A stretch of 64,000 nt of DNA, taken from positions 6,309 through 70,308 of the forward strand of contig CAWEEC010000092.1 in NCBI GenBank assembly GCA_963807785.1, in the 5' to 3' direction. A program made the translations under genes and the position numbers. Origin of the DNA: an uncultured Gammaproteobacteria bacterium (GTDB taxonomy: Bacteria; Pseudomonadota; Gammaproteobacteria; SZUA-229). The notes under the pieces are model-generated. The model had not been told where the DNA came from, did not search any database, and saw only the letters and a program-made list of their open reading frames with translations. Positions 12,999 to 53,541 of this stretch are shown here, piece after piece (the stretch's first letter is position 1; every line of letters starts with the position of its first letter).

Positions 12999-13718
12999 CT
13001 ACTCGTTTGAATTAATACAATTAATATAGGCCTCTTCAAGATTCTTTCCATTATATGCTTGCTTGAATTCTGTTGATGTACCTTGATACAGAATTCTGCT
13101 TTTATGTAATACAGACATGCTGTCAGCCAATTCATCAACGTCGGCCAGTACATGCGAACTGAAAAACACTGTAAGCCCCCGTTGCTTTAAATTGAGCAGC
13201 TGTTTTTTGAATAATACACGTGCTTTAGGGTCCAGGCCACTCATAGGCTCGTCAAGAATTAACAGTGATTTATTACTCAGTAGACATGATGTAATGCCCA
13301 GCTTCTGTGTCATGCCTTTGGACAAACGCCCAACCGAAGATTCCATAATTTCACGATCAAGCTCGAGTGCATCCAGCATTTTATCTATATCAGCGCTGTT
13401 GATGTTACTAGAATGCAGTTCAAGCATATATCGAATAAAATCCTTGCCCTTGAGATACAGGGGGGGTGAAAAACGATCAGGAAGGTAGGCAACCTGTTCT
13501 CGGGAACTTACTTTATGATGCGGCTTGCCAAACAAATTGACTGAACCACCATCGATTGAAATTAAATCCAGTATTGCCTTGATCATGGTCGTCTTGCCGC
13601 TTCCATTCATGCCCACGAGGCCGTAAAAATTACCTTCAGGGACATCCAGATCAATGCTATCTAGTACACGTTTTTTACCGTAAGATTTATCGACGTTCTG
13701 GCATTGAATAGCAAGCAT
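12999..13718 (-). CDS. ABC transporter ATP-binding protein (ABC-2 type)
   Basis: 239 aa. Walker A GMNGSGKTT, signature LSKGMTQK, Walker B LLILDEP. Confidence 0.9.
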   Translation of the reverse strand: MLAIQCQNVDKSYGKKRVLDSIDLDVPEGNFYGLVGMNGSGKTTMIKAILDLISIDGGSVNLFGKPHHKVSSREQVAYLPDRFSPPLYLKGKDFIRYMLELHSSNINSADIDKMLDALELDREIMESSVGRLSKGMTQKLGITSCLLSNKSLLILDEPMSGLDPKARVLFKKQLLNLKQRGLTVFFSSHVLADVDELADSMSVLHKSRILYQGTSTEFKQAYNGKNLEEAYINCINSNE

Positions 13719-13743
13719 TTTATTCGATTTGTTATTACTGCAT

Positions 13744-13768
13744 AAAAAAGAGCCCAGTATATGGGCTC
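13744..13768 (-). terminator. rho-independent terminator after the orphan pilin gene
   Basis: Minus-strand RNA GAGCCCA-UAUAC-UGGGCUC followed by U6. It sits between the pilin stop (13796) and the ABC ATPase start (13718). Confidence 0.85.
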
Positions 13769-13795
13769 CTGTTTTTAAAATATGTTCAATACAGA

Positions 13796-14497
13796 TTAGA
13801 AGTTTCTGAACACGGCTGCACAGTTATCGCTCGGATTCTGTAATTCATAATCATTCGCTGCAGTTATACACAAGCCTTCGGCTGTTGCATCCCAACCTGT
13901 ACCAGCAGTACCCAGCTGCATCGCACCAGAATCAGGTGAACCGTCATCTACCTTGCGATCCAGTTCGGCGATAACTTCTACAGGTATGCCACGGCCACTA
14001 ATAAGCTCGTGAGAAGCAGCTGCGCCTGTTTGTACCATGGTGCCATATGACAGATTCATGCCTGAACCAAAGCCATTATCCGGACAAACCGTTGGCGCGC
14101 AATTGTAAGCATCAGCAGCGACAGTTTGTGTATCGTCTGTATAGCCACCTGTTAAGTAGCCGGCGGCTTCAAGATGAACCCAGACACGCGCGCTTTCGGA
14201 CGTTGTATCGACCAGGCCATTACCGTCGCCGCCATCTGGTGCACCAGGCAGATTTACGTTTGATTGAGTTGTATTGTAATCGCCAGGGAATGCGCGATAG
14301 CGGTCCTGGAAACTGAACCAGGCTGCGGTAATACCATCAACAGTGTTATTCATCGCGCGCACACGCGCGGTGTTGATTAGTTCCTGACCCTTGAGCACAC
14401 CACCCAGGAGCAGACCGATTATGACCAGCACGATCGCGATTTCAATCAGGGTGAAGCCTTGCTGTTTATTCAATTTGTTCATAACTGTCACTTTCAT
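13796..14497 (-). CDS. prepilin-type (type IV pilin/pseudopilin) protein, orphan copy
   Basis: N-terminal ...KQQG/FTLIEIAIVLVIIGLLLGG is a class III signal peptide with the cleavage/methylation motif. An alternative start at ATG 14482 gives a 9-aa leader. The C-terminal Cys pairs are typical of pilins. Confidence 0.85.
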   Translation of the reverse strand: MKVTVMNKLNKQQGFTLIEIAIVLVIIGLLLGGVLKGQELINTARVRAMNNTVDGITAAWFSFQDRYRAFPGDYNTTQSNVNLPGAPDGGDGNGLVDTTSESARVWVHLEAAGYLTGGYTDDTQTVAADAYNCAPTVCPDNGFGSGMNLSYGTMVQTGAAASHELISGRGIPVEVIAELDRKVDDGSPDSGAMQLGTAGTGWDATAEGLCITAANDYELQNPSDNCAAVFRNF

Positions 14498-14527
14498 TTG
14501 TTATTGCCGTGTTGTTATTGTTATTAA

Positions 14528-14543
14528 AGCAATATCCATACCA
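14528..14543 (-). promoter_or_regulatory. sigma-54 promoter of the orphan pilin gene
   Basis: The minus strand reads TGGTATGGATATTGCT, with GG and TTGC at canonical spacing, 31-46 nt upstream of the ATG at 14497. Confidence 0.6.
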
Positions 14544-14619
14544 ACATTATATAGACCAAGAAACGCCCATTTACCCGCAAATTTGCCGCTTTACAGGCTG
14601 ATTTAAACTGTTATTTTGT

Positions 14620-15369
14620 CTAGTTATCAACATCTTGACGAATTTTCGTCATTTTTTCCTCAAGTACTCGAATTTTGTTCTGCAGAAACTCAAACTCATA
14701 TGGATCCGTGATTTCACCGCTGGCAATCAGGCCGCCAACCAGTATCTTTGCCGCCTCCACTTCGCCCATGTCCTCGAGTACGATAATTTTCATGTCCCTG
14801 GCCCAATAAGGCACGTTTGCACCGGTCGCTTTTTCTGCCAGGGCATGGGCATATTTCAATGCCAGCGGCAAGTCCTTGAGCTCGTGTTTGGCTGTGATCA
14901 CGGCATGCGCCAGCCAGCGCCAGTGCTTGTTCGGTTCCTGGTTGAACTTGGAGAAGATGTAGTCCATCATTTCGCGCTGTTTTTCGCGGTCACTCACGCC
15001 GCCGTATACCCTGGCCGCAACCAGCATGGGGTAATGCCCTCTCGGGTCCAGCTCGAGTATGGTATCGAGCCATTGTGTAACAACACCATAATCAAGCGCA
15101 TGCAGCGGTATACTGATGCCGGGCTGATTATCAAATGCCTGCAGCCATAAATTCAGCACTTTTGCTGCCGCTACCGGCTCACCAAACGAGCTCATCACAT
15201 AGGCCCGGTGCGACATCGGCTGCGATAAATCGTCAGCTCTGGCTACTATGGGCTCCTGCTGACTGTGCCAGAGTAATTGCATGGCCAGCGATATCACCAG
15301 TAATATAATTATGGCTGACGGGACGTCCCTGACTGGACGGTCTTTTTCGATAAAACGCCTGATCATCAA
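14620..15369 (-). CDS. hypothetical membrane-anchored, helical-repeat periplasmic protein
   Basis: 249 aa with one N-terminal TM helix (AIIILLVISLAMQLLW); the rest looks all-helical. Its start overlaps the permease stop (ATGA), which suggests translational coupling. Confidence 0.6.
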   Translation of the reverse strand: MMIRRFIEKDRPVRDVPSAIIILLVISLAMQLLWHSQQEPIVARADDLSQPMSHRAYVMSSFGEPVAAAKVLNLWLQAFDNQPGISIPLHALDYGVVTQWLDTILELDPRGHYPMLVAARVYGGVSDREKQREMMDYIFSKFNQEPNKHWRWLAHAVITAKHELKDLPLALKYAHALAEKATGANVPYWARDMKIIVLEDMGEVEAAKILVGGLIASGEITDPYEFEFLQNKIRVLEEKMTKIRQDVDN

Positions 15370-16178
15370 AAATTTTTACGATAAAAATCAAACATTGCTA
15401 TGGCTGACAGTAATACCGAGTAGATAACAGCCTGTCCGATTACAGGCATCAGCAAGCCAAAACTGCCGGTTCCGTGTGCAAGCCATTCGGTCTGGGTAAA
15501 TCGATGCAAATCGGGTAACAGCCAGGTCAGTAGCTCAACAAAGCCATCCATAAACTTCTGTGATACCGTAGTATGTGAAATAATTGGATACTTGGACATC
15601 AGGTAAATCGATGTCGCCGATCGTGATGCCGCATAGATAATGAACACGCCTGTTAGTGCTGCGGGTATCTGGTTGAATGTAAACATCATTACCAGGCCCA
15701 ACGCCACTACAAGAACCAGCTCAAAAAAGAGTGAAATACCCCATATAATGACCTGGTCAGCAGCAGCGTAAAACAGCAACATGGCGCTGAACATGACCGC
15801 GATGATGAGTGATACATGAACAAAACCGGTCAATTTACCCAGAAAGTAACTACTGCGATGGATTGGCATCGCCAGTATCATTTCCAGTGTCTTGTCCTGC
15901 AGCTCGCGCACACTACTTGAAACAACAAACATCGTAACAATGACAACTGCGCTTATTCTAAGAAATGCCGCGAGCACTGAAACCTGTGTTTCCCTGTGCT
16001 CGGTAATAGCCAGATCACCAATAAACTCTACCAGCCCAAAACTGATCACAATGATGAGTAATGACAGCCACAGCAGGCGATTACGCATCGACTCTATTAT
16101 GGTAAATTTCGAGATAGTGAATATTTTCGAATGCATTTTTAAGCCGCAAATTACTTTATCCATGTTAAGTGTAGGCAT
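15366..16178 (-). CDS. ABC-2 type transporter permease
   Basis: About six TM helices with an ABC-2/NosY-like layout (ESMRNRLLWLSLLIIV...). The probable true start is ATG 16136. Confidence 0.7.
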   Translation of the reverse strand: MPTLNMDKVICGLKMHSKIFTISKFTIIESMRNRLLWLSLLIIVISFGLVEFIGDLAITEHRETQVSVLAAFLRISAVVIVTMFVVSSSVRELQDKTLEMILAMPIHRSSYFLGKLTGFVHVSLIIAVMFSAMLLFYAAADQVIIWGISLFFELVLVVALGLVMMFTFNQIPAALTGVFIIYAASRSATSIYLMSKYPIISHTTVSQKFMDGFVELLTWLLPDLHRFTQTEWLAHGTGSFGLLMPVIGQAVIYSVLLSAIAMFDFYRKNF

Positions 16179-16184
16179 AACCTG

Positions 16185-17858
16185 ATGTCTTTTCTATCTG
16201 AAAAACTGCTTTTAGGAAATGAATATCGGCTGCTTGGCCTGATGATGGTTTCACTAATTGCAGCTATTTCATTCAGTGAAAACATAAATATCTCGCGCAG
16301 CCTGTTTATAACACATTTTGGGTTTTTCCTGATGTGGCAGCCCGTATACAAACAGGAAGACAACTTCAGCCTGGTCGACCTCATGATCTTGCTTGGCCTG
16401 ATCGGAATATTTATTGTCTGGCTGAATGTTTGGTTAACACCATTCTGGATGCTGCTGCTTCTTAGCCTGTTAACCGGCCGGATTTTCTCTCATGGTATGG
16501 GGCGCATTGCCTACGGCATAGCAGTTATCGTGCTTTTTTTACAGCTCATCTTGATAACGACACCTGACTTGTTCAACTTGCATGGCTTTTCAGCACCCGT
16601 TGTAGCGACGCTCGAACTGCTATTGATTTTGACCCTGTTTCCATTGTTTTTTATCAAATCAGATGAGCATCGCCACGCAACACATGTTGATTTTATACGT
16701 GGTTTTCTCATCGTAATACTCACATCGTACCTCTGCATGGGTAGCGTACTCGTTACTTTCAAGGCAAACATACCTTATATTCAGGCTCTTGCCAGCAGTA
16801 TCATTATAGCCGCCCTGTTCCTGCTGGTTACAGCATTACTGTGGTCGCCAAGAGGCGGCTTTTCAGGACTGGCACAACTTTGGGAAAAATATCTGCTCAA
16901 CATCGGCGGACCGTTTGAACAATGGATATCGCAGCTATCATCACTTGAAGCCAATACCTCGCTCGAACCCGATTATTTTCTGGATACCAGCATCAGGTAT
17001 CTACAGGAAAGGCACTGGATTAGTGGCATCTCGTGGAAAACTCAAAAAACCGACGGGATTGCCGGAGATGAAACCAGATACCAGGTTACGGTAAATGATG
17101 ACAAGGTTGAGTTGACACTGTATGCGTTCAGTCCAATAGGCCCTGCCCTGCTACTGCATACAAAATTATTACTCAGTGTTCTGATGTTTTATTACAAGGC
17201 AAAGTTGCAGGAACGACAATTAACCAGGCAGGCTCATTTACGCGCAATTTATGAAACCGGTTCAAAGCTTACACATGATGTTAAAAATATTTTGCAGTCT
17301 ACCAAGACACTTACGCAAGCGGTAATGCTGGAAGATGGTCGTAATGCCGAGACCTACCAGATACTGAAAAGACAGCTGCCGCTACTAACTGAAAGACTGC
17401 AGGCCACGCTGGACAAGCTCAGCGCACCGACACTGGAAGTTTCGGAATCCATATCACTCAAGTCATGGTGGCAGGAAGTACAGTCGAAATACGCGGGGCG
17501 TGATATCAATTTTACACAGTCCATACACAGTGACGCGTTAATACCACTCGAGGTTTTCAACACCGTAACAGAGAATCTACTCGATAATGCACGCTCCAAA
17601 CGGCTGATGCAGAACGATTTGTCAATTACTGTGTCACTACAGTCCGATAACAACAGAGTCACTCTTCGTGTGATTGATAGCGGTTCGCCTATAGCGAGTG
17701 AAACCAGGATGCAGTTGTTTGACGAGGTAATCTTTTCGGAGAGCGGGTTTGGTATCGGACTTTACCAGTCTGGGCAGCTGGCTAAACGTGCAGGATATAA
17801 CTTACAGCTTGAAAGCAACAACCAGGGCAATGTTTGCTTTTGTTTGTCTTCAACATAA
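16185..17858 (+). CDS. multi-TM sensor histidine kinase (PrsK-like by recollection)
   Basis: 557 aa. About 8-9 TM helices over the first ~230 aa, H-box LTHDVKNILQS, N-box ENLLDNARSKR, G-boxes IDSGSPI and GFGIGLYQS. Confidence 0.85.
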   Translation: MSFLSEKLLLGNEYRLLGLMMVSLIAAISFSENINISRSLFITHFGFFLMWQPVYKQEDNFSLVDLMILLGLIGIFIVWLNVWLTPFWMLLLLSLLTGRIFSHGMGRIAYGIAVIVLFLQLILITTPDLFNLHGFSAPVVATLELLLILTLFPLFFIKSDEHRHATHVDFIRGFLIVILTSYLCMGSVLVTFKANIPYIQALASSIIIAALFLLVTALLWSPRGGFSGLAQLWEKYLLNIGGPFEQWISQLSSLEANTSLEPDYFLDTSIRYLQERHWISGISWKTQKTDGIAGDETRYQVTVNDDKVELTLYAFSPIGPALLLHTKLLLSVLMFYYKAKLQERQLTRQAHLRAIYETGSKLTHDVKNILQSTKTLTQAVMLEDGRNAETYQILKRQLPLLTERLQATLDKLSAPTLEVSESISLKSWWQEVQSKYAGRDINFTQSIHSDALIPLEVFNTVTENLLDNARSKRLMQNDLSITVSLQSDNNRVTLRVIDSGSPIASETRMQLFDEVIFSESGFGIGLYQSGQLAKRAGYNLQLESNNQGNVCFCLSST

Positions 17859-17862
17859 CTGG

Positions 17863-18630
17863 CTATGGCAACATCCCGATCTCGACCATCCTTGCTTTTA
17901 ACTCGTAATCGCTTATCCAGAGAACGATATCATCAAACTCTCCGCCCGCCGTGGTGGTACCCGCTTCTGTTGGTGTACGGCTCAGAAACTCCGAGTTTGT
18001 ATCTGTATTGTTGATCTCGTCGAGATTTGCTGCCGGTATAGCCGGCCGTGCAACACCGTCAACACTCAAACCACCGTAGGTATTCTTACCATGCGTAAAG
18101 ATGACAGCGACAGCATTGGTTGCAACCAGTGGTGTTGTTGCACCATTCGCACTGCGGGTTCTGATTCGTCCGGTTCCCGCATCTGTCAGGCCAAACACAC
18201 TGCCCGCACCGCTGCCGTCATCTGAAAAGGCGGGATCCACCCAGTACCGGTACAGCGTGTTCCAGGAATCCGACGGTTTCAACCCCAATGTTCCCCAGGG
18301 CAAGTAACCCAGATAACCATCTGCTGCATCGGCATCACAGGTTCCAGTTGCTAAGTCTCTGTCTTCGAGTCCGCCATTTTCGCTATCACAATTGGTCTCG
18401 CACGGACAAGGCAGGAATGGACCGCCTGAACTGTAGACATATCCGAGGATCGCGTTTTTGATGATTTCAAGATCAGCCTGCGATTCAGCCCTTTTGGTCG
18501 TATCGATGCGCGCACCCAGGGTACCAAGGAAGCTTCCGATCAGCACACCAACAATGACAAGCACAATCGCGAGTTCGATCAATGTAAAGCCGGCTTGTTT
18601 ATGATTCATGGTCTTGATCATTATGGACAA
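17863..18630 (-). CDS. prepilin-type protein (pilin/pseudopilin), last gene of the filament operon
   Basis: MNHKQAG/FTLIELAIVLVIVGVLIG is a class III signal. The likely start is ATG 18609. Cys-rich globular part. Confidence 0.85.
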   Translation of the reverse strand: MSIMIKTMNHKQAGFTLIELAIVLVIVGVLIGSFLGTLGARIDTTKRAESQADLEIIKNAILGYVYSSGGPFLPCPCETNCDSENGGLEDRDLATGTCDADAADGYLGYLPWGTLGLKPSDSWNTLYRYWVDPAFSDDGSGAGSVFGLTDAGTGRIRTRSANGATTPLVATNAVAVIFTHGKNTYGGLSVDGVARPAIPAANLDEINNTDTNSEFLSRTPTEAGTTTAGGEFDDIVLWISDYELKARMVEIGMLP

Positions 18631-20081
18631 CTCACGACAGTTAACGGATCTGAATCTGTTATGCAGAAAGCTATATCATTGGCTGTTGGCGTGTAATTTC
18701 CGGTACCGTCCCCAACAGCATTATTCACTTCAATATAGTTTGCCAGTACGTTTTTTGTATCTACATCTCCGGCAAACGGTTCATTTCGCAACTGGGCACC
18801 GGTACGGCTGCCGGCATAGAGCACCACAGCGGCGTACTCATTAGCACCGACATCGATGCAGTTTGTGCCTACACAATTGGGCGCACCTGCATCGGCGATA
18901 CTGGTTGGTGCATAGTAGGCCGATACTGCGTAAAAAAAGTGATCTTTCCAGTTCTTCCATAACGTATATCCTTTAGCCCCCGAGCCTGTATTCAAATCTA
19001 TGTTCGGTCCACCGCCAACCACCAGTGAGTCACAATAACCTTTGTCAAACAGGAATGGCACTGCATCATTTGGTGCATTGGCAGCACCTAACGCTGCATC
19101 AGAATCGTCGACAGTATGCGGATAGCGCCCCAGGTAACTTACAGCCACTGTATCATCATAGTTTCCATCCAGCCTGTAATCCAGTCCGGCGAAATCTACA
19201 GCTACGGGCCTGGGTAGTTTGCGATTACCGCTGTTATTACCATAGGCAGCGATACACAGCGCCAATGCCTGCGTCAGCCGCCTCATCGCACTGTCCGCAC
19301 TGGTCATAAAATCCCGCCTCTTTGTAATGGCGTCCCATAGTTCCTGCCGAGTAATAGTGACCAGCTGGTCATTGTAAGGCACCGGCAGCTGGTCCGTATC
19401 CACACCCCGGTTGATTACATCGTCTATAGATAGTGCCGCGCCGGAAAGTGTCGAATTATCATAAACGCCATCGCCCTCCAGATAGTTCGCCGGCGTATAA
19501 TCAAGGCCACACTGCGATGTAATATCGAAAGTTCTGGCCTGTCCGGACAGCGCAACTGATGGATCATACAATACTGCCACAACTCGATCTTCTGCAAATG
19601 CTCCTGTTTTTAGATTAGCTTGAGCATCGTATACCCGGAACGCGCCATTTGAGTCTTCATTCAACATGTCCGGCAGAGTCGACACCGCGTCCTTGTACTC
19701 ACCTGATACCGCATACCAGAGGCAATTACCGCTACCCGACTTCAGTATGCCTGTTTCCAGGCTGGCCCATGGAAACAGCCCTAGCGTATTCACTTGCTTG
19801 CTTCCACACGTACCATGGCTACCACCTTCGACAATGGCATCAATACCCGTATCCGGGCAGGGCAGGAAGCCATATTCACCTGGATTACTGTCTTCATACA
19901 ATACCGCGAAATCGAGTAATGCCTGTTTTGCCCGGTTTAAAGATGTTTGTGTTGTCTGTGTCTGTTCGAGACGGAAATATTCTATTGGTACTTTTCTAAA
20001 CAGATAAACAATCGCAGCAAGAGAAATCACGATGACAAAGATTAGTAGCGCGATTCCTTTTTGCCCTGAGACATTGTCCAT
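18621..20081 (-). CDS. large (486 aa) minor-pilin-like protein with a PilX/GspK-like N-terminal anchor
   Basis: I prefer start ATG 20081 (MDNVSGQKGIALLIFVIVISLAAIVYLF). There is a hydrophobic N-terminal helix but no G/F cleavage motif. It shares a Cys-containing module with the 255-aa pilin. Confidence 0.6.
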   Translation of the reverse strand: MDNVSGQKGIALLIFVIVISLAAIVYLFRKVPIEYFRLEQTQTTQTSLNRAKQALLDFAVLYEDSNPGEYGFLPCPDTGIDAIVEGGSHGTCGSKQVNTLGLFPWASLETGILKSGSGNCLWYAVSGEYKDAVSTLPDMLNEDSNGAFRVYDAQANLKTGAFAEDRVVAVLYDPSVALSGQARTFDITSQCGLDYTPANYLEGDGVYDNSTLSGAALSIDDVINRGVDTDQLPVPYNDQLVTITRQELWDAITKRRDFMTSADSAMRRLTQALALCIAAYGNNSGNRKLPRPVAVDFAGLDYRLDGNYDDTVAVSYLGRYPHTVDDSDAALGAANAPNDAVPFLFDKGYCDSLVVGGGPNIDLNTGSGAKGYTLWKNWKDHFFYAVSAYYAPTSIADAGAPNCVGTNCIDVGANEYAAVVLYAGSRTGAQLRNEPFAGDVDTKNVLANYIEVNNAVGDGTGNYTPTANDIAFCITDSDPLTVVSCP

Positions 20082-20106
20082 ATGAATTGCTTTCACGATC
20101 AAGGTA

Positions 20107-20538
20107 TTACTGGTAATTGTCCTTGACCTGATCTTCCCCCTGAGACCAGCTCTGTCCGGGCTTGATTTGTATACGCTTGCCATCGACTCTTACCGGAACC
20201 TTATAGGTTTCTCGATCAGCTGCCTTCGGATTAACCTTCACACCTTTACTGAAGCCGTTATCAAGCGTACTTTCACCATTGACCCAGACCACATTTTCTC
20301 CATTACTTCTCATCATGACACCGTTGACTCTCACGTTTGTTGTCGCGCTGCTCTGCTCTGCCTCTTCCTGATAAGTGCCGCGCCTTACCGCATCCAGTTT
20401 TTGCCTCTGCCCAGCGTCAGTAAAAAGCCGCCCCAGCTTATCTATTTCGTCAGCAGAAACCGCCGGGCCAGAAATCAGCAGTATGGCTGATATCAGTAAA
20501 AATGCGGATCGACCGGACAGCAATTGAATAGTATTCAT
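20107..20538 (-). CDS. small secreted protein in the MshK/PilP position
   Basis: 143 aa with a signal peptide and a beta-rich C-terminus. The assignment rests on gene position only. Confidence 0.4.
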   Translation of the reverse strand: MNTIQLLSGRSAFLLISAILLISGPAVSADEIDKLGRLFTDAGQRQKLDAVRRGTYQEEAEQSSATTNVRVNGVMMRSNGENVVWVNGESTLDNGFSKGVKVNPKAADRETYKVPVRVDGKRIQIKPGQSWSQGEDQVKDNYQ

Positions 20539-20540
20539 GG

Positions 20541-21161
20541 CTAACTCTTCTCTGCTTTTTTTAGCGTATACCAGCTAAGCTCACAATAGGCTCTCATATT
20601 ATCTGCAGCCTCCTGATCGATTTCACCATGATGAATATTTTTATTAATCAGCTCGATATCGCATTTGTCTACAGAAACAAGGCCTTTTGCTTCCCTCTTT
20701 AATGTGCTCAACATTGCAAACAGATCCCCTTCATGAAGGAATTTCATATCGAGCGTCATCATGCTTTTAAATACGTCGATCCCTTTATATTTTTTGTCCA
20801 GGGCTTTTTTGTCAAGCAACTTTTGGCTGGCAATATTGTATTTGACTGATGTCATACCCCTTGACTCGGCAACACGTTGCACGATCTCTAACCAGCTAAG
20901 CCTGTTTTCATCACCTATGACTGAGTTACTTATCAGCTTTTTAAATGTATCTTCATGCTCAACAAGAATCTGGTTGTTCCGGTTAGCTTCGTCGATCTTG
21001 TTTCTCCAGCTATGCATTTCTCTCTTCATTTTGCTGTTTTCGTCGTTTGCCGTGTTTTTATACATACCAGACAATGTCACCACAGTTACCATTAACAACA
21101 GAACGCTTGTAAAAAGCACAAGGGGTTTTTTAATACTTCGATGAATGCTTAGCCTATACAT
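20541..21161 (-). CDS. bitopic inner-membrane protein, MshJ/PilO/GspM-like
   Basis: 206 aa with one N-terminal TM helix, a coiled coil and a periplasmic domain. Overlaps the upstream gene by 8 nt. Confidence 0.45.
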   Translation of the reverse strand: MYRLSIHRSIKKPLVLFTSVLLLMVTVVTLSGMYKNTANDENSKMKREMHSWRNKIDEANRNNQILVEHEDTFKKLISNSVIGDENRLSWLEIVQRVAESRGMTSVKYNIASQKLLDKKALDKKYKGIDVFKSMMTLDMKFLHEGDLFAMLSTLKREAKGLVSVDKCDIELINKNIHHGEIDQEAADNMRAYCELSWYTLKKAEKS

Positions 21162-22767: not shown

Positions 22768-22779
22768 ATGATTAACCGA

Positions 22780-23988: not shown

Positions 23989-25704
23989 TTACATCAACCT
24001 CTGTGTCAGGTCGATAACACGTGAAACTTCCTGCAGTGATGTTTCTCCTTCAAGTACGCGCCGTATCGCATCGTCAGCCAGTGTCTTATAACCTGTTGAT
24101 TTAGCACAGGCTCGTAATTCGCCAAGCGTTGCGCGCTTGGCGATCTGCTCATCAAGCTGACTATCAATGCGTAATGCCTCGATGATAGCTACGCGGCCTT
24201 TATAACCGGTGTTATCACATTTTGCACAGCCGTCTGCCTCATATATAGTCAGCGCTTCGTTAACGTATTCAACACCAAGTAACTTGCTGTCAACATCATC
24301 GGCCTCCCTGGGTCTTTTACATGACGGGCAAAGCAGCCGCACCAGCCTCTGGCTGATAATTCCGATGATATTACCGGTCATGATATCCGGAAGCACGCCT
24401 ATATCCAGCAAACGTGGTATAGCGCCGATTGCCGAATTTGTATGTAACGTGGAAAGTACCTGGTGTCCTGTCATCGCGGCGCGGAAAGCCATATCAGCCG
24501 TGTCTTCATCACGAATTTCACCGACAAGAATAATATCCGGGTCCTGCCGCATCATGGATCGAATTCCATTAGCAAAATCCATACGTGCGACTTCGTTTAC
24601 CGATGTTTGCCTGATCATGTCAACCGGATATTCAACAGGATCCTCCAGTGTCATAATATTCACCTGTTCCGACTTGACGTAATTCAGCATGGAATACAAC
24701 GTCGTAGTCTTACCACTTCCGGTAGGCCCTGTTACCAGGATGATTCCTTCCGGCCTTGCCATCATCAATCTCAATGTGTGCAGGGTGGAATCATTAACAC
24801 CAAGCCTGTCCAGAGGTACAATACCTTTAGCGCGATCAAGTACACGAAGTACGATATTTTCGCCGTGGGTTGTTGGTTGTGCAGAAACACGAAAGTCAAC
24901 ACGATGTCCCTGTACCTGCAAACTTAACCTGCCATCCTGCGGTATCCTGGTTTCGGCTATGTTCATGTTAGACACCACCTTCAGGCGAACAACAATCGCC
25001 GACCAGTAGTCTTTATGCAGACTGCGAATCTGGCGCAATACACCATCTATGCGGTAACGCAGCCTTAAGAATCCGTCTTCGGGTTCAAAATGAATATCTG
25101 AAGCTTCGCGCTTGACGGCATCAGCCAATATCGCGTCTACCAAACGCACCAGAGGCTGGCTGTACTCATCATCTATCGCATCAAGACTCTTGTAATCAAT
25201 CTCTCCTGTTTCGATTTCATGCAAAATGCCATCGACTGACAACTCGTAACCATAAAACTGGTCAATGGCTTTTTTAATTTCACCTACACCAGCGACCAGC
25301 GGTATAATTTCGACCTTGCGTCCAACCAGCGCATGGATCCTGTCCTGCACCATCAAGTCAGAAGCATTCTTCATCGCAATTTTCAGCTGCTGGGCTACTT
25401 CATCAAAACTGACCGGGATGATGGTGTGGCGATCGGCAATTTCTTTCGGAATCATAGCAAGCGCGCCCTGATCGGGAATTACATTACCAAGGTCTACACT
25501 ACCAACACCCAGAATCTTGCCAAGCACATCGCGCATGACAGATTCGGAGACAAAACCCAGGGAAACGAGAATTTCACCTATCAGGCGCCCGTTTTTTTTC
25601 TGCTCGGTTAATGCGATCTCTACCTGGTCATAAGTCACCAGGCCTTTCTCAATCAGCTCTTCACCGAGTCGCTTTTTTTTCTTTATAATTGCTGGCGCGT
25701 TCAT
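23989..25704 (-). CDS. type IV filament assembly ATPase (GspE/MshE family) with MshEN-type N-terminal domain
   Basis: Walker A GPTGSGKTTT, Asp and His boxes, tetracysteine CPSC...CAKC, and N-terminal RLGEELIEKGLVTYDQVEIALTEQ. Confidence 0.93.
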   Translation of the reverse strand: MNAPAIIKKKKRLGEELIEKGLVTYDQVEIALTEQKKNGRLIGEILVSLGFVSESVMRDVLGKILGVGSVDLGNVIPDQGALAMIPKEIADRHTIIPVSFDEVAQQLKIAMKNASDLMVQDRIHALVGRKVEIIPLVAGVGEIKKAIDQFYGYELSVDGILHEIETGEIDYKSLDAIDDEYSQPLVRLVDAILADAVKREASDIHFEPEDGFLRLRYRIDGVLRQIRSLHKDYWSAIVVRLKVVSNMNIAETRIPQDGRLSLQVQGHRVDFRVSAQPTTHGENIVLRVLDRAKGIVPLDRLGVNDSTLHTLRLMMARPEGIILVTGPTGSGKTTTLYSMLNYVKSEQVNIMTLEDPVEYPVDMIRQTSVNEVARMDFANGIRSMMRQDPDIILVGEIRDEDTADMAFRAAMTGHQVLSTLHTNSAIGAIPRLLDIGVLPDIMTGNIIGIISQRLVRLLCPSCKRPREADDVDSKLLGVEYVNEALTIYEADGCAKCDNTGYKGRVAIIEALRIDSQLDEQIAKRATLGELRACAKSTGYKTLADDAIRRVLEGETSLQEVSRVIDLTQRLM

Positions 25705-25706
25705 GA

Positions 25707-26960
25707 CTATTGAATGGCCCCCAGATAAGCCAGTCTGCTTTTAACAGCATCTGGAGAAAAACTGATATTCTTGCCATTGGCAAGCTTCAAACTGTCTTCA
25801 TAATAGGCCCTGGCTTCCCTGTATTTGCCAAGATGATCCAGGCTGACAGCCAGGTTATAGGCGTAATCAGGGTTCTCACCATCAACTTTCCATGCGTTAA
25901 AAAAGGCCTGCTGTGCTTCTGGCCAGCTCTTTTTCTGTATATACAGATTGCCCAGTGCAAACTGCAGATTAGAATCGTCAGGCCGAAACTCTATTAACTG
26001 CTTAAGCCTGGTCTCGCTAAGTTCTGCTCCACTGGTTTGAGCAATGTTTGCAAGCCCGGCATGTGCATGCGGATCTCGTGGATCACGTTCCAGTAGTTGA
26101 ATGTATAGATCCCTGGCCGTTGCAGAATCACCCTGTTGCAGCGCCACAGCAGCCATTCCCAGCACAGCGTCATGATTATCTGGCTCCTTGTCCAGAACCT
26201 TTTCATATTCACGTCTTGCTGATTCATAATGCTTGCTCTGATACGCAAGCCAGCCACGTTGCAGTGCTTCACTTACCGGGTCACGCTTCTCTGCTTTTTG
26301 CACGCTAAATGTCTGTTTTGCCAACGGCACATCTCCAGGCCTGGCATCATTTATTGTTGATGTGCTGGCTGCAGCCCTGGCCTTTATTCCTTTCCTGGTG
26401 CTCGATTCTGTCTTGACGTTCGACTCGGGAACAACCGCCAGTGAGGTCAAATTTTCTTCGATTCTTGTTTTGGATTTGAGTGTTGCAAGCGCAATCTGGT
26501 GTTTACGCTGCATTGACTCCAGCTCATCCAGCATGTCGAAATAGAAATACAGGCCACCAATTGATAAAAGCAAAAGAGAACCAATCACCACACCACCCCA
26601 ACTCAGCATCCTTGACTTCTTGTGTTCGATATTTGTCTTATTTATGAGTAGCTTTAATGCCTCGTCAGTTACTGTTGTCGGCGTTTGTATTATGCGTTGC
26701 TGATGAAAACCAGCTTCTGACGTTTCATTAAACTCAGGCGATGCAGTATCCTGCATGGCAGCCGAAGCCAGATGCTGATCATCAAGCTCAAGCTCCTCAA
26801 GCAGCTCTAGATCTGGTTGCCTGCCCTTGTATTCGGGCTGCACCGGGTCTTGATCAAGCAGCAGCTCAGACTCATCACCCGACTCTGCCTGTAAATCTGC
26901 AGAATTCGCGCTTTGCTTCGCTTGAGCAGCTTTTTTCAGGGCATCCAGTAACAGGCTCAT
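25707..26960 (-). CDS. TPR-repeat protein with GspB-like N-terminus (MshN-like position)
   Basis: N-terminal MSLLLDALKKAAQ resembles the GspB/ExeB N-terminus. One TM helix at ~aa 120-140. The C-terminal ~180 aa hold TPR repeats. Confidence 0.6.
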   Translation of the reverse strand: MSLLLDALKKAAQAKQSANSADLQAESGDESELLLDQDPVQPEYKGRQPDLELLEELELDDQHLASAAMQDTASPEFNETSEAGFHQQRIIQTPTTVTDEALKLLINKTNIEHKKSRMLSWGGVVIGSLLLLSIGGLYFYFDMLDELESMQRKHQIALATLKSKTRIEENLTSLAVVPESNVKTESSTRKGIKARAAASTSTINDARPGDVPLAKQTFSVQKAEKRDPVSEALQRGWLAYQSKHYESARREYEKVLDKEPDNHDAVLGMAAVALQQGDSATARDLYIQLLERDPRDPHAHAGLANIAQTSGAELSETRLKQLIEFRPDDSNLQFALGNLYIQKKSWPEAQQAFFNAWKVDGENPDYAYNLAVSLDHLGKYREARAYYEDSLKLANGKNISFSPDAVKSRLAYLGAIQ

Positions 26961-26996
26961 GTTTATACGCTTGCTCGATATTATTCAAAATGGTAT

Positions 26997-28658
26997 TTAC
27001 TGCTCATCTTCATTTGAGCCACTCTCGATCGCCTGTGCAGTATTCAGCTTCTTCTTGTTTTCTGTCTGCAGTTCTTCAAGTAAATATTTTCTATATTCCT
27101 TGAAATCACCGGTCAAACTTGCGTCATGAGTAACGACGGGGCGAATAAAAATGACCAGTTCTGACTTAACATACTCGTCTTGCTGATATCTGAACAAGGC
27201 GCCAAGAAATGGAATGCTGGATAATAGCGGAACACCGGTTATCGATTTGTCAATCTGGTCCTGCATAAGACCGCCGATAACAGCGGTATCGCCATTTTCT
27301 ATCTTAAGAACTGACTCGATTTCACGTACCTGTATTATCGGTATCTCGTTGGTAACGCCTGCATCGGCCAGTGCGGGATTCGGGTCCTTGACGAATCCAA
27401 TGATGCGTGAAATAGTTGGTCTGACATTCAGCGTTACCACATCGTTCTGATCAATATAGGGCGTCACGGTCATAACAAAACCAACCGGTACCGTATTAAC
27501 ATCAGTATCTACTGCCACTGCAGAATTTTGATTTACAGCCCCGGGAACCGCCTCAACTTCGACATTAAAGTAAACCTCGTTATCGACCACCTTCAATAAT
27601 GCGCTTTGATTGTTAATCGCCATTACTTTTGGGCTTGACAGCACTTTCACATCACCAAAGGTTTCTAGCGCCTTTAATGTAACGTTCAGTGGATTACCAT
27701 TTACACTATCGGCAATATTGAGCGAAAAGAAAGGTGTCTGGCCCAGATTACCACCGAGCAGGTCCTGGGTAACCGATGCATTCGGATCGCTGGTTACAAA
27801 TGACCAGTCAATACCTGCCTGATACTTATCACTTAACTTGACCTCGGCAATGGTTGCTTCGATGAGTACCTGCCTTTGTACACTGTCGAGCACCTTGTCG
27901 ATAAAACTCTGTATCTGCACATGCTGTTTTGCGGTTGCGTTCACCGCAATCATGCCACTTTCTCTATTGACGATAATGTTTTCGCTGGTATCAACATCAT
28001 TACCCTTGCTGGATTTAACCTTCTCACCAATCATTTTCGCGATATTTATCGTCAGCGTTTTCCAGAATTGATTGTTCGATGTATTCTCTACAAGTGAGCT
28101 GGAATTATTTCCGCCTTTCTCACCGCCGCCACTTTGACCACCCTCAACATTGCCACTACCGGTTGATTTTATCTCGGATGAAATCTCAACCGTACCCGTA
28201 CTGATGCGTGACATATTCAGATAGTCGATGTTGTAGATTTTCAGATGTGGCTTGTCCGCCTGCACACGTAATGTGCCGTCAAGCAGATGATATCGAATGT
28301 TGGCCTGTTGTGATATTCGGTCAAGAATTTTTGGTAACGTCTGGTCAATAGCATTCATAGTGACGTTACCTTCAATATCATTTTCTATATCGAGATTAAG
28401 CTTTGCATCTCTGGCCATTGAAAACAGCAATTCGCGAATTGGCACATCGTGCACAACTACTGTATATGTTTCGAGGTTAGGCCTTTGCACCGGCATTGGC
28501 AGCACTGGTACGCGCGAGATAGCTTCCGGAATGTTATCCATAGCAGGTGCATCGATCATCAAGTGGCCATCAGACACATCCGGAGGATTGGATGCCCCAC
28601 ATCCGGCAATCATCAATAGCCCGAAAATTAAACTGCTTTTTATTATTATAATGTTCAT
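26997..28658 (-). CDS. secretin (GspD/PilQ/MshL family) lipoprotein
   Basis: Lipobox LLMIAGC after the ATG 28658 start. The C-terminal secretin domain (VLSSPKVMAINNQSALLKV...VPLLSSIPFLGALFR) is clear. Confidence 0.9.
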   Translation of the reverse strand: MNIIIIKSSLIFGLLMIAGCGASNPPDVSDGHLMIDAPAMDNIPEAISRVPVLPMPVQRPNLETYTVVVHDVPIRELLFSMARDAKLNLDIENDIEGNVTMNAIDQTLPKILDRISQQANIRYHLLDGTLRVQADKPHLKIYNIDYLNMSRISTGTVEISSEIKSTGSGNVEGGQSGGGEKGGNNSSSLVENTSNNQFWKTLTINIAKMIGEKVKSSKGNDVDTSENIIVNRESGMIAVNATAKQHVQIQSFIDKVLDSVQRQVLIEATIAEVKLSDKYQAGIDWSFVTSDPNASVTQDLLGGNLGQTPFFSLNIADSVNGNPLNVTLKALETFGDVKVLSSPKVMAINNQSALLKVVDNEVYFNVEVEAVPGAVNQNSAVAVDTDVNTVPVGFVMTVTPYIDQNDVVTLNVRPTISRIIGFVKDPNPALADAGVTNEIPIIQVREIESVLKIENGDTAVIGGLMQDQIDKSITGVPLLSSIPFLGALFRYQQDEYVKSELVIFIRPVVTHDASLTGDFKEYRKYLLEELQTENKKKLNTAQAIESGSNEDEQ

Positions 28659-28710
28659 TAATTTACCAAGTACAAAATGCGCATCAATCATGCTTGCTCA
28701 TGTCACAGGC

Positions 28711-30135
28711 TTAACTGCTTGACTCAAGATCCTTCCTAAGTGCACTAACACGGCGCAAGAACGGCTTGCTAGCCTTCATGTCTGCCGGCAGATTTTGAAG
28801 TATGGAACGGGCAGTTTGTCTCGAATCAAAATCGTTATACAGAACACTGTACATACGACTTCCTCCGATTCTAGTTTCATAGACATAAATCTTTTCAAAA
28901 TCAAGGAGATCGGATGGGCCGCGCAGAAAATCCTCAAGCGCTTTTGCGTCTGCGATGCGTGTCATGAAGAGCTGGATACTGTAGTGTTCATCATCAACTG
29001 CTGACAGCCATTTTTCTGTTTCACTGAGACGCTGATCAAGTAACGTGGGCCTGATTCTGCTCTTATTATTTGTTTCACTGCTGCCTGTTTTTTCCTCTAC
29101 TAATGCATCAGCCACCGCCATTGTTTTAGTTGTTATCGTCATGGCTGACGTTGCATTACCATTATCACTGTTGTGTACAGACTGTTTACTTTGAGACACA
29201 GGCATAACCGATACCTGTTCTATACCCGGTCCAATCCAGCCCGGTATCATTGACCCGACCCAAACTGCCAGTAACAAAGCGGCAATCACTCCGCCGGTCA
29301 TAAACACAGGTCTATAACTAGTCCCCTTTCTAAAATCACTATCTTTGGCTGCGCTGGCAACATGCCCGACCTTGACTTCATGACTGCCCTCGGAGAACGA
29401 GGCCATCAGGGACTTGTCAGCAATGATATTTATACGTCTGGATAAGCCACTTGAATATTTTTCAACAGCACTGGCCGTGCGCTGATTGAACAGGCTGGGC
29501 CCCCGGTAACCAACGGACCGCAGCCTGAAGTTGAGATAATCCAGGGTATCTTCCGGCGGGAACGGATCCAGATAAAAACTGTGCGTAATCCTTTCTTTCA
29601 ATTGCCTGATCTGTGGCTGCGCCAGCTTGTCATCCAGCTCGGGTTGCCCGAACAGCACCATTTGCAGAAGTTTGTGCTGATCAGTTTCAAGGTTACTCAG
29701 TAAGCGAATTTCTTCCAGCGTTTCCACAGGCATGCTCTGCGCTTCTTCAACAAACACAACCACCTGGCGATTGTCTGCGTGCTTCTTCAACAGGTAGCCC
29801 TGCAGTTTCTGCATCACATCGAGTTTACTATCATCGTTTCTTACCCCCAGATTTAGCTCATGTGCAATTACATGCAGGATATTATCCGGGGACAGGCTCG
29901 GGTTCGCTATATAAACAACGTCTACGACGTCTGACAGCTTCACTTCCAGCATACGACACAACATCGTCTTACCACTGCCAACCTCACCAACAACTTTAAT
30001 GATGCCCTCACCCGAATTTATTGCATAAATCAATGCTTCCAGTGCAGCACCACGCTTGCTACCTTCAAAGAACATGCTGGTGTCAGGCGTTATTTTGAAC
30101 GGCGACCGATCGAGTCCGAAATGCTCAAGATACAT
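28711..30135 (-). CDS. ExeA/GspA/MshM-family AAA ATPase with TM segment and C-terminal SPOR-like domain
   Basis: MYLEHFGLDRSPF..., Walker A GEVGSGKT, Walker B VVVFVEEAQ, and a TM helix at ~aa 285-305. The C-terminus YSIQLFMTRIADAKALEDFL...YSVLYNDFDSRQTA has a SPOR-like pattern. Confidence 0.85.
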   Translation of the reverse strand: MYLEHFGLDRSPFKITPDTSMFFEGSKRGAALEALIYAINSGEGIIKVVGEVGSGKTMLCRMLEVKLSDVVDVVYIANPSLSPDNILHVIAHELNLGVRNDDSKLDVMQKLQGYLLKKHADNRQVVVFVEEAQSMPVETLEEIRLLSNLETDQHKLLQMVLFGQPELDDKLAQPQIRQLKERITHSFYLDPFPPEDTLDYLNFRLRSVGYRGPSLFNQRTASAVEKYSSGLSRRINIIADKSLMASFSEGSHEVKVGHVASAAKDSDFRKGTSYRPVFMTGGVIAALLLAVWVGSMIPGWIGPGIEQVSVMPVSQSKQSVHNSDNGNATSAMTITTKTMAVADALVEEKTGSSETNNKSRIRPTLLDQRLSETEKWLSAVDDEHYSIQLFMTRIADAKALEDFLRGPSDLLDFEKIYVYETRIGGSRMYSVLYNDFDSRQTARSILQNLPADMKASKPFLRRVSALRKDLESSS

Positions 30136-31581
30136 TTAATTGCTCCCCAGTTTTTGTACTCTGCTATACAACGTGGTTCTATTTACATGCAGGGCTTCAG
30201 CTGCCTTGCTGATATTATTATTATATTTTTCCAGCGCAATACGTATACAGCGACTTTCTATATCACTGAGTAAATCATCAAGCTTCAATTCACCCGCTTC
30301 AATTTTGCCTACAATATATTCATCAGTGAGAGACGGGCTTAATTCGTTCAGAGCCTCGGCTGACAGTTGCGTCTCGAGCTCTTCATTCAGCTGTGCATAT
30401 GTCACTACGCTTCCCGGATACTTGGTGCCCAGCCGAATAACAATATTTCTTAATTCTCTAACATTACCCGGGAATGCATAGCTCTCCCAAAGTTGTATTG
30501 CTTCGTTATCAAAGGTGAACGGTGATACCGTATCAGCATACATTTGCTGAAAATGATCGAGCAACAGCTGCTTATCTTCCTCACGATCACGTAGCGGCGG
30601 CATGCTGATGTGTAATATGCCAAGGCGATGATATAGATCCGCCCTGAAATAACCTGTCGACACTTCTTCACTCAATACCTTGTTAGTTGCCGCAACGATA
30701 CGGGCATGTGACTGGTGCACCCTGGTTTCACCGACGCGGTAGAACTCACCTGTCTCCAGTACGCGCAACAACTTGCTTTGCAGTTCCAGGGGCAGCTCGC
30801 CGATCTCGTCCAGAAACAAAGTGCCTTTGCCCACCTCGATAAAGAAGCCCTTGTGCTCCTGATCAGCGCCGGTAAAGGCACCCTTTCTATGGCCAAATAG
30901 CTGCGCCTCGAGCAAATCGGGCGCGATCGACGCGCAATTGATTACCATGTTGGGTTCATTTTTACGCTTGCTACTTTCATGCAGTGCTTTTGCTATCATT
31001 TCCTTGCCTGTTCCCGATTCGCCTTCGATCAATACCGGAAATGGCGAGTCGGCAAACTGCTGTATCTGGTTGTGCACTGCTTCAATGGCGGCACTGCAAC
31101 CAATGAGACGGCTTTGCGCTTGGGTTTCACGCTTGATATCTATCGCATGCAATCGCTGTTGATGTTGCAAACGACTCAGCAGCAGGTCAGGATCTGCCGG
31201 TTTGGCAATAAAATCAACCGCACCCAATGTCAATGCATGCTGGATATTGACGTCATTATCCTGCCCGGACAGAACCAGAATTTTCATATGGGGATTTTTT
31301 GTGATGAGCTCTCGAATCAGCTCGAAACCTTCGTCAGGTTTGTGCGGAAAAGGCGGTAACCCAAGATCCACCAGCGCAATGTCCGGACAAAGCTCAGGCG
31401 CAGACACCCGGCTGATGGCCGCATTCCTGGTATCCGCAACGATCACCTGGTAGTGCTTGCCCAGCATGAAACCAAGGCTCTCCGCTATTAATGGATCATC
31501 ATCGACCAGCAGTAGTGTTGATTTGTGCGCTATTTCCGATTTCATCGCGGTTTCAGGCATACTACGCCCCGTTTTTAGCAA
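30136..31581 (-). CDS. sigma-54-dependent response regulator (PrsR/PilR-like), first gene of the filament operon
   Basis: REC domain with VDLGLPPFPHKPDEGF, AAA+ domain with GESGTGKE and GAFTGA, and a C-terminal HTH. Its stop codon directly abuts the exeA-like ATG. Confidence 0.9.
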   Translation of the reverse strand: MLKTGRSMPETAMKSEIAHKSTLLLVDDDPLIAESLGFMLGKHYQVIVADTRNAAISRVSAPELCPDIALVDLGLPPFPHKPDEGFELIRELITKNPHMKILVLSGQDNDVNIQHALTLGAVDFIAKPADPDLLLSRLQHQQRLHAIDIKRETQAQSRLIGCSAAIEAVHNQIQQFADSPFPVLIEGESGTGKEMIAKALHESSKRKNEPNMVINCASIAPDLLEAQLFGHRKGAFTGADQEHKGFFIEVGKGTLFLDEIGELPLELQSKLLRVLETGEFYRVGETRVHQSHARIVAATNKVLSEEVSTGYFRADLYHRLGILHISMPPLRDREEDKQLLLDHFQQMYADTVSPFTFDNEAIQLWESYAFPGNVRELRNIVIRLGTKYPGSVVTYAQLNEELETQLSAEALNELSPSLTDEYIVGKIEAGELKLDDLLSDIESRCIRIALEKYNNNISKAAEALHVNRTTLYSRVQKLGSN

Positions 31582-31607
31582 TTATGTTGACCATCTACCA
31601 TATATAG

Positions 31608-31635
31608 CAGAACACACTATTAATAATGTGTTCTG
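31608..31635. promoter_or_regulatory. 9-bp perfect inverted repeat in the divergent regulator/trmL promoter region
   Basis: CAGAACACA-N10-TGTGTTCTG, 27-54 nt upstream of the first ATG of the sigma-54 activator gene. Confidence 0.4.

Positions 31636-51997: not shown

Positions 51998-53541
<1,544 letters not shown>

Follow-up and report, generated by a model that had tools for sequence, protein, structure and literature searches.

What kind of machine is encoded between positions 12,999 and 31,581 of a 64,000-nucleotide stretch of contig CAWEEC010000092.1, and how is its filament subunit controlled? The stretch, hereafter the window, covers positions 6,309 to 70,308 of the contig and belongs to assembly GCA_963807785.1, from an uncultured gammaproteobacterium of the lineage SZUA-229. 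All 16 genes that a first-pass annotation of the letters had placed in this locus were confirmed at the same coordinates with the list of open reading frames (ORFs) and with Pfam and NCBIfam scans. We consider it fairly probable that the locus is an MSH (mannose-sensitive haemagglutinin) class type IV pilus machine with its own regulatory circuit. As predicted from the sequence, a kinase and a sigma-54 activator probably switch on a separately transcribed pilin gene inside an ABC transporter cluster.

The machine itself is encoded by an eleven-gene operon on the minus strand, running from 31581 to 17863. As had been described, its genes are tightly packed, with intergenic distances ranging from a 10-nt overlap to a 36-nt spacer, and the sigma-54 regulator is the first cistron. 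In the order of transcription, the operon comprises:

30136-31581, minus strand: sigma-54 response regulator with REC, AAA+ and Fis-type HTH domains (Pfam Response_reg, Sigma54_activat, HTH_8)
28711-30135, minus strand: MshM/ExeA-like ATPase with AAA_22 domain (E 2e-27), one membrane segment and a C-terminal periplasmic SPOR domain
26997-28691, minus strand: MshL-type lipoprotein secretin (TIGR02519; lipobox MIAG|C)
25707-26960, minus strand: bitopic TPR protein in the canonical MshN slot (TPR families)
23989-25704, minus strand: filament-extension ATPase of the GspE/MshE type (T2SSE, E 1.5e-127) with N-terminal MshEN domain
22780-23988, minus strand: inner-membrane platform protein of the GspF/PilC/MshG type (two T2SSF domains)
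21154-22767, minus strand: 537-aa assembly protein with a PilM/GspL-like fold, no Pfam or NCBIfam match
20541-21161, minus strand: 206-aa bitopic protein, no family match
20107-20538, minus strand: 143-aa secreted periplasmic protein (signal peptide ...AVSA|DE), no family match
18621-20081, minus strand: 486-aa pilin-like protein (N-terminus GQKG|IALLIF, no Glu5)
17863-18630, minus strand: 255-aa prepilin (GFTLIE; N_methyl, E 6e-8; TIGR02532), last gene of the operon

The likely true start of the regulator gene is the ATG at 31560. For the 486-aa gene the mechanical ORF is 520 aa long, and the NCBI record uses the 486-aa form.

MSH systems are defined by the genes mshA, mshE, mshG and mshL as well as mshM (Denise 2019, PMC6668835). 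The canonical msh cluster of Aeromonas caviae NZ_AP026896.1 served as the Aeromonas reference. In the plasmid collection this replicon of 4.9 Mb is named 'plasmid pKAM479_3'; it carries the full canonical msh cluster and is evidently a chromosome. The secretin narrowly passes the MshL equivalog TIGR02519 (253.7 bits, cutoff 250.2) and stays below the cutoffs of the GspD (156 vs 351), PilQ (126 vs 284) and SctC models. It is 25% identical to Aeromonas MshL, which is its best match in that chromosome. Over residues 1-267 the MshM-like ATPase shares 42.6% identity with Aeromonas MshM (E 4e-75), and the platform protein is 27% identical to MshG, the sole Aeromonas paralog with which it was compared. 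The extension ATPase passes NF053729, a model of the MshE-related motif for cyclic di-GMP (c-di-GMP), with 61.2 against a cutoff of 38, and the motif RLGEELIEKGLVTYDQVEIALTEQ is readable in its N-terminus. Among the three places that it matches in the Aeromonas chromosome, MshE is the best (37.5% identity). The TPR protein has weak similarity to Aeromonas MshN, in the TPR region only, and the pilins resemble MshA and MshB in their N-terminal 30-40 residues only. Identities to Aeromonas Msh proteins span 25-43%.

Similar to the MSHA pilus of Vibrio and the Bfp pilus of Aeromonas, the locus combines an MshL-type secretin, an MshM-type ATPase, an MshN-like TPR protein and a putatively MshG-type platform with an MshE-type ATPase carrying the c-di-GMP-binding MshEN motif. 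It is likewise a single locus with neither a prepilin peptidase nor a retraction ATPase. The lack of a peptidase had been pointed out before, and no prepilin-peptidase motif was found anywhere in the 64 kb; it is, however, not unusual, since MSH systems are single-locus systems which all lack this enzyme (PMC6668835).

The locus also departs from these pili in several ways. The first-pass annotation had described an MSH/T2SS-like filament operon with an order different from that of Vibrio, and this holds for the Aeromonas msh cluster as well. In MSHA and Bfp (mshHIJKLMNEGF/BACDOPQ) the core runs I-J-K-L-M-N-E-G, whereas here it runs M-L-N-E-G followed by I-J-K-like genes. Here the regulator is the first cistron and MshH is absent, the MshM-like protein carries an additional membrane segment and a SPOR domain, and no similarity to MshI, MshJ, MshK, MshF, MshO, MshP or MshQ is detectable. 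Three pilin-like genes are present instead of about seven, and the candidate major pilin lies outside the operon, under a putative sigma-54 promoter and within the ABC-2 module. By its design the system is recognisable as a type IV filament machine; by its sequence it is probably MSH-class, and it differs from canonical MSH systems.

The first three structural genes bear on a different reading, that of a secretion system. The membrane segment of the MshM-like ATPase lies at residues 283-301 in a hydropathy scan, and its SPOR domain was matched in 15 out of 19 orthologs (best E 8e-7); this C-terminal module is not present in Aeromonas MshM. Because of the added segment and SPOR domain, the architecture of the protein is ExeA-like. 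ExeA-like ATPases and their bitopic partners form the secretin-assembly pair of the type II secretion systems (T2SS) of Aeromonas and Vibrio. Similar to ExeA/ExeB (GspA/GspB), the locus encodes, beside a bitopic partner and a secretin, an AAA-type ATPase that crosses the membrane once and has a peptidoglycan-binding domain in the periplasm. Unlike in ExeA/ExeB, the domain is SPOR instead of PG_binding_1, and in the place of the partner stands an MshN-kind TPR protein whose single membrane segment spans about 119-143. A GspB-like N-terminus had been proposed for this partner; it gave no match to Pfam T2SSB, and the proposal is not supported.

A T2SS-like machine would push folded substrates through the secretin with a short periplasmic pseudopilus, and its nearest precedent would be the 'atypical' Pul system of Geobacter. 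Besides the ExeA-like pair, this reading is favoured by the presence of only three pilin-like genes, one of them lacking Glu5 as in GspK, by the absence of a retraction ATPase (PilT) gene from the locus, and by GspE and GspF being the top NCBIfam matches of the extension ATPase and the platform protein. The Pul systems of Geobacteraceae possess 2-3 pseudopilins (PMC3543383). Nonetheless, all T2SS equivalogs remained below their cutoffs (GspE 509 vs 630, GspF 294 vs 424, GspG 32 vs 89, and GspD as given above), the secretin passes the MshL model instead, and the extension ATPase has the c-di-GMP N-terminus of the MshE type. The 537-, 206- and 143-aa proteins gave no match to the curated GspC, GspL and GspM models. 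At 233 and 255 aa the pilins are large, and one of them has a dedicated, presumably strong promoter and a terminator, as would suit a fibre subunit made in abundance. Among the genes conserved in the locus there is no candidate for a substrate. We therefore regard T2SS-like secretion as unlikely. The PilB equivalog of type IVa pili was also below its cutoff (504 vs 676).

The remaining operon genes encode further parts of the proposed MSH-class pilus; the 537-, 206-, 143- and 486-aa proteins match no Pfam or NCBIfam family. In the AlphaFold2 model of the 537-aa protein (mean pLDDT 77), a cytoplasmic actin-fold domain of the PilM/GspL/FtsA type is followed by a membrane segment within a long helix and by a periplasmic alpha/beta domain. 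The top Foldseek matches are PilM (5eoy/5eou, E 1e-12), FtsA and the cytoplasmic domains of EpsL/GspL. As modelled, the architecture is that of a PilM-PilN fusion, GspL or MshI, and a PilM-like fold occurs in the locus only inside this fusion-type protein. The 206-aa protein possesses one N-terminal membrane segment and two invariant periplasmic Cys. From size, position and topology only, it is a candidate PilO/GspM/MshJ analogue, and the 143-aa protein, on the same three grounds, a candidate PilP/MshK/GspC-HR analogue. A Pfam scan of all members of these two families, at E up to 5, gave no PilO, PilP, GspM or MshJ/K signal. Comparison of the 537-, 206- and 143-aa family profiles, and of that of the 249-aa protein of the ABC-2 module, with the PDB sequences revealed nothing beyond a weak TPR signal in the last, and a PADLOC scan of the proteins without family match found nothing.

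The 486-aa protein was modelled with confidence (pLDDT 89.9, pTM 0.86) as a 60-residue N-terminal pilin-like helix carrying a Cys-rich globular domain of about 420 aa with eight invariant Cys. Foldseek found no match to the model in the PDB (best E 2.9). The N-terminus GQKG|IALLIF, which lacks Glu5, is in the style of GspK and PilX, and with the model it makes the protein a candidate tip or priming subunit; its confident fold without a PDB match marks it as a candidate new adhesin or tip module. The 255-aa prepilin is probably a minor pilin.

How the machine is controlled is indicated by the genes beyond the operon end and by the signals around them:

16185-17858, plus strand: multi-pass membrane histidine kinase (HATPase_c), convergent on the operon end
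15366-16178, minus strand: ABC-2-type permease, with weak ABC2_membrane_2, _3 and _4 matches and about six membrane segments
14620-15369, minus strand: 249-aa bitopic protein, its family unnamed and without Pfam or NCBIfam match, gene overlapping the permease gene
14617-14632, minus strand: inverted repeat TGTTGATAACTAGACA, consensus TGTYGA-N4-TMRACA, putative enhancer (upstream activating sequence), about 73 nt upstream of the sigma-54 site
14528-14543, minus strand: sigma-54 promoter TGGTATGGATATTGCT predicted by comparative motif analysis, 30 nt 5' of the start codon of the 233-aa pilin gene
13796-14497, minus strand: 233-aa prepilin (GFTLIE; N_methyl, E 3e-8), own transcription unit
13748-13770, minus strand: intrinsic terminator hairpin read from the sequence, 9 bp and a T run, directly 3' of the 233-aa pilin gene
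12999-13718, minus strand: ABC transporter ATP-binding protein (ABC_tran, E 1.5e-22), syntenic
31601-31634, minus strand: putative operon promoter region, a 26-nt palindrome AGAACACATTATTAATAGTGTGTTCT running into a TGCTATATA box, read from the sequence

That a pilin gene interrupts an ABC-2 transporter cluster had been seen before and is correct; the 233-aa gene separates the ABC ATPase gene from the permease gene. The circuit around this pilin had been missed and is new. The gene lies 3.4 kb downstream of the operon end and, with 58-91% identity to gammaproteobacterial relatives, is better conserved than the other two pilin-like genes. It and the 255-aa gene carry the only two GFTLIE prepilin signals in the 64 kb. 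A scan of the window with a loose sigma-54 consensus gave no more matches than expected by chance, and the site at 14528-14543 is convincing because of the comparative analysis. A strict sigma-54 motif was found 5' of 24 out of 32 orthologs of the 233-aa pilin gene, and 5' of no orthologs for seventeen out of nineteen other genes checked. For the other two genes, those of the regulator and the 143-aa protein, the motif was found in 3 of 38 and 1 of 67 loci, respectively. A looser motif is present in all 21 loci having both the regulator and the kinase. The two covered loci without regulator and kinase (L053 and L080) have neither the sigma-54 site nor the palindrome before the pilin gene. The inverted repeat has no second match to its consensus in the window; it was found in 27 related loci and occupies the same position in 26 of them, including the distant L064 and L069. 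The only sigma-54 promoter of the locus is probably that of the 233-aa pilin, which is probably its key regulated subunit; its transcription signals suggest that it is probably the major pilin. A GCTATATAA box, similar to TGCTATATA, is located immediately 5' to the sigma-54 site of the pilin gene.

The regulator and the kinase had been likened to PrsR and PrsK, the two-component pair of PEP-CTERM/exosortase loci. At the level of domains these are indeed the nearest families and the logic is the same, whereas membership is not supported, since the full-length scores are below the cutoffs and the target is a pilin. The best NCBIfam match of the regulator is PrsR (TIGR02915, 342 bits vs a cutoff of 502.6). 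Its receiver domain alone scored 82.8 bits with this model (E 2e-23) vs 50 for the next family, and for the receiver of the neighbouring true NtrC TIGR02915 was not among the top 25 families. The full-length kinase scored 41 with PrsK (TIGR02916) vs a cutoff of 300; PrsK is the best family of its core (44 bits, next family 33), and its membrane part (residues 1-342) matches no family. The kinase is multi-pass, as had been stated, although the nine segments proposed for it are replaced by roughly seven to nine in a hydropathy scan. Kinase and regulator are present together in 21 loci and absent together in two, and on this pattern the kinase is probably the partner of the regulator.

Circuits of similar design are familiar from type IVa pili. 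In Pseudomonas, Myxococcus and Geobacter, the multi-pass kinase PilS and the sigma-54 enhancer-binding regulator PilR act on a sigma-54 promoter before a monocistronic pilA. The present locus shares with them the multi-pass kinase, the sigma-54 activator and the putative sigma-54 promoter before a single pilin gene. Unlike in PilS/PilR, PrsR and PrsK are the nearest families of the receiver and of the core of the kinase (in a comparison without PilR/PilS), 12 kb separate the regulator gene from the kinase gene at the other end of the operon, and the membrane domain of the kinase is without family match. The targets of PrsR have an upstream motif, a spacer of about 63 nt and a sigma-54 site before single-gene units (Haft 2006, PMC1569441). 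The pilin gene resembles the PrsK/PrsR/PrsT layout in its upstream motif, spacer of about 60-70 nt, sigma-54 site and single-gene unit, besides PrsR and PrsK being the nearest curated families of regulator and kinase. It differs in the sub-cutoff scores, in the pilin as target and in kinase and regulator genes that are not adjacent.

These likenesses could mean that the locus is a component or an export route of a PEP-CTERM/exosortase-type exopolysaccharide system. The best NCBIfam matches of three proteins, namely PrsR, PrsK and the XrtA-associated ATPase family TIGR03015, point in this direction, and so does the resemblance of the cis layout to PrsR regulons (PMC1569441). Nevertheless, all three proteins are below the curated cutoffs. 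The proposed membership of the MshM-like ATPase in TIGR03015 fails (211.7 vs 324.5), and the protein is 43% identical to a genuine MshM. Besides TIGR03015, its only NCBIfam match is a very weak one to DamX, and for this reason the TIGR03015 match may reflect the generic ExeA-type ATPase fold and not a PEP-CTERM link. No PEP-CTERM motif occurs in the 64 kb, as had been reported. No exosortase family was found among the 40 window ORFs scanned, which is not an exhaustive set, or in the flanks of betaproteobacterial loci that were examined. The predicted sigma-54 target is a pilin and not a PEP-CTERM gene. A PEP-CTERM role appears very improbable.

The ABC-2 transporter genes around the pilin gene raise the question of whether they belong to the MSH-class pilus at all. 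The permease is syntenic in gammaproteobacterial loci, and the 249-aa protein is a conserved partner of the ABC module. We know of no precedent for an ABC-2 transporter tied to a pilin gene other than PilGHI of Myxococcus. By layout the locus is similar to that of Myxococcus xanthus, with an ABC-2 transporter and an extra protein beside a sigma-54-controlled pilin and kinase/regulator genes (for the PilGHI ABC transporter, see PMC6060248). Unlike in PilGHI, the pilin gene is located between the accessory gene and the ATPase gene. By this analogy, the ABC-2 transporter and the 249-aa protein could be accessory factors for pilus biogenesis. The locus would then represent a second, independent case of such a transporter tied to a pilin gene, and could help to explain the requirement for PilGHI in Myxococcus.

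The operon and the kinase/249-aa/ABC-2 module might instead be functionally unrelated neighbours, among which the pilin gene merely landed. Betaproteobacterial and some other loci possess the eleven-gene operon without ABC module or kinase. The 249-aa protein and the permease showed no homology to pilus proteins in Pfam or NCBIfam, nor did the 249-aa protein among PDB sequences. Against this, gammaproteobacterial loci retain the arrangement of kinase, permease, 249-aa, pilin and ABC-ATPase genes beside the operon even where the 537-aa protein is as little as about 29% identical (L064, L068). The end of the 249-aa gene lies within the enhancer-like repeat, and kinase and regulator are gained and lost together with the promoter. 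We judge a chance neighbourhood to be quite unlikely.

A scan of the GTDB species genomes for relatives of the 537-aa protein matched 148 loci, of which the best 80 were listed. In about 45 long loci, tblastn synteny showed that the order regulator, MshM-like ATPase, secretin, TPR protein, extension ATPase, platform, 537-, 206-, 143-, 486- and 255-aa protein is kept, and this order still holds where the 537-aa protein is 23% identical, Betaproteobacteria included. The locus is flanked by glnA-ntrB-ntrC on one side and by trmL-gpsA-secB on the other. Synteny of the whole locus together with these flanks extends to relatives whose 537-aa protein is about 45-50% identical. A 2.5-Mb metagenomic contig with a 51% identical 537-aa homologue carries the whole locus, with both modules and the same flanking genes.

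The first-pass annotation had called the locus an island. The conserved order and flanks, and similar GC at third codon positions (GC3), across the about 45 related loci from metagenome-assembled genomes (MAGs) contradict this, and the island reading is rejected because of the conserved synteny and the similar GC3. The higher GC content noted for the pilin genes is real (0.49-0.52 vs 0.39-0.43 in the assembly genes), but it lies in codon positions 1 and 2; GC3 is 0.46-0.52 in the pilin genes and 0.43-0.45 in the assembly genes. The excess is an effect of amino-acid composition, the pilins being rich in Gly, Ala and Thr.

Among the best 80 of the 148 loci, the closer ones are labelled Thiotrichaceae, Arenicellales or unclassified Gammaproteobacteria, and the distant ones Cellvibrionaceae, Sulfuricella and Sulfurimicrobium. 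At 50% identity the 537-aa family falls into about 1,900 clusters, the 249-aa family has 2207 unnamed relatives (clusters at 90% identity), and every copy seen of either was labelled 'hypothetical'. In an exact look-up, the only match of the 537-aa protein was a 1.8-kb Logan contig, and the ATPase protein had no match. The plasmid collection searched contains no relative of the 537-aa protein, and no description of this locus variant was found in the literature searched. The locus is a conserved, uncharacterised variant of an MSH-type machine in many uncultured sediment and marine proteobacteria. With at least 148 GTDB species genomes encoding a 537-aa relative, the system is common in uncultured Gamma- and Betaproteobacteria of these habitats.

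A wider reading, which we put forward tentatively and hold to be possible at best, is that these loci form a distinct, ancient and widespread type IV filament clade, sister to or outside canonical MSH. Such a clade would have its own alignment subcomplex of three families outside Pfam, a tip subunit whose fold the PDB lacks, a dedicated ABC-2 exporter in fibre biogenesis and a sigma-54 circuit derived from PrsKR. It would merit its own class in the classification of type IV filaments, and might perhaps serve a function new to them.

For the MSH-class pilus with its own circuit, the following mechanism can be proposed. The multi-pass kinase would phosphorylate the PrsR-like regulator, which would bind the inverted repeat and activate sigma-54 transcription of the 233-aa pilin, the presumed major subunit. 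The circuit of kinase, activator, enhancer palindrome, promoter and pilin gene is compact and could largely be predicted from sequence. Binding of c-di-GMP to the extension ATPase would license polymerisation of the pilin on the platform, and the 486- and 255-aa proteins would prime or cap the fibre. The prepilin peptidase would come from a gene at another place in the genome. Secretin assembly would be aided by the SPOR-bearing ATPase together with the TPR protein, and the fibre would exit through this secretin to serve adhesion.

Several points weigh against this proposal. Every mechanistic step is predicted from sequence and models. The MshL model is passed by barely more than its cutoff. 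The extension ATPase is nearly equidistant from MshE (37.5% identity), XcpR (40.9% over 83% of the length) and PilB (about 35%), so that the class rests mainly on MshL, MshM and the architecture. The 537-, 206-, 143- and 486-aa family profiles showed no significant similarity to MshI, MshJ, MshK, MshO, MshP or MshQ of Aeromonas. We infer the binding of the repeat by the regulator and, from transcription signals only, the rank of the 233-aa pilin as major subunit. The 3' end of the 249-aa gene lies within the repeat, so that coding could account for some of the conservation seen there. The link between the ABC module and the pilus is one of synteny alone, and the betaproteobacterial locus L077 possesses the regulator with no kinase, ABC module or such pilin nearby. 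Finally, the best 80 of the 148 loci are all from MAGs.

As for transcription of the operon itself, the TGCTATATA box upstream of the regulator gene resembles an extended -10 element and is kept 5' of this gene in nearly all related loci (L004-L074), which suggests that 31601-31634 may be the operon promoter. In one subclade the box overlaps a sigma-54-like TGGCA(A/G)CATTTCTGCT, which would make autoregulation possible; in the window the GG of this motif is missing. The kinase and permease genes are divergent, with a spacer of at most about 48 bp (16137-16184; 6 bp with the mechanical ORF starts), and because of this short spacer their promoters must overlap coding sequence. The kinase and 255-aa pilin genes are convergent; their stop codons are 4 bp apart, and no terminator hairpin lies between them.

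A lead from Table 2 of Haft (the NE1609/RSp0148/GSU1783 GspE family) to the Ralstonia megaplasmid was set aside as a different system, since the megaplasmid has only an F-E gene pair there and no MshM or secretin. Over the whole window, Rfam and tRNA scans were empty; outside the locus, a 1152-aa ORF at 44037-47495 on the minus strand gave no NCBIfam match at E 1e-25. Of the pair of ORFs at 52336-53541 and 58708-59964, the atpA ORF spans only positions 1-390 of a 503-position model and the mnmG ORF only positions 223-616 of 616; both look like the result of frameshifts or of assembly errors in the region 50-60 kb of the window.

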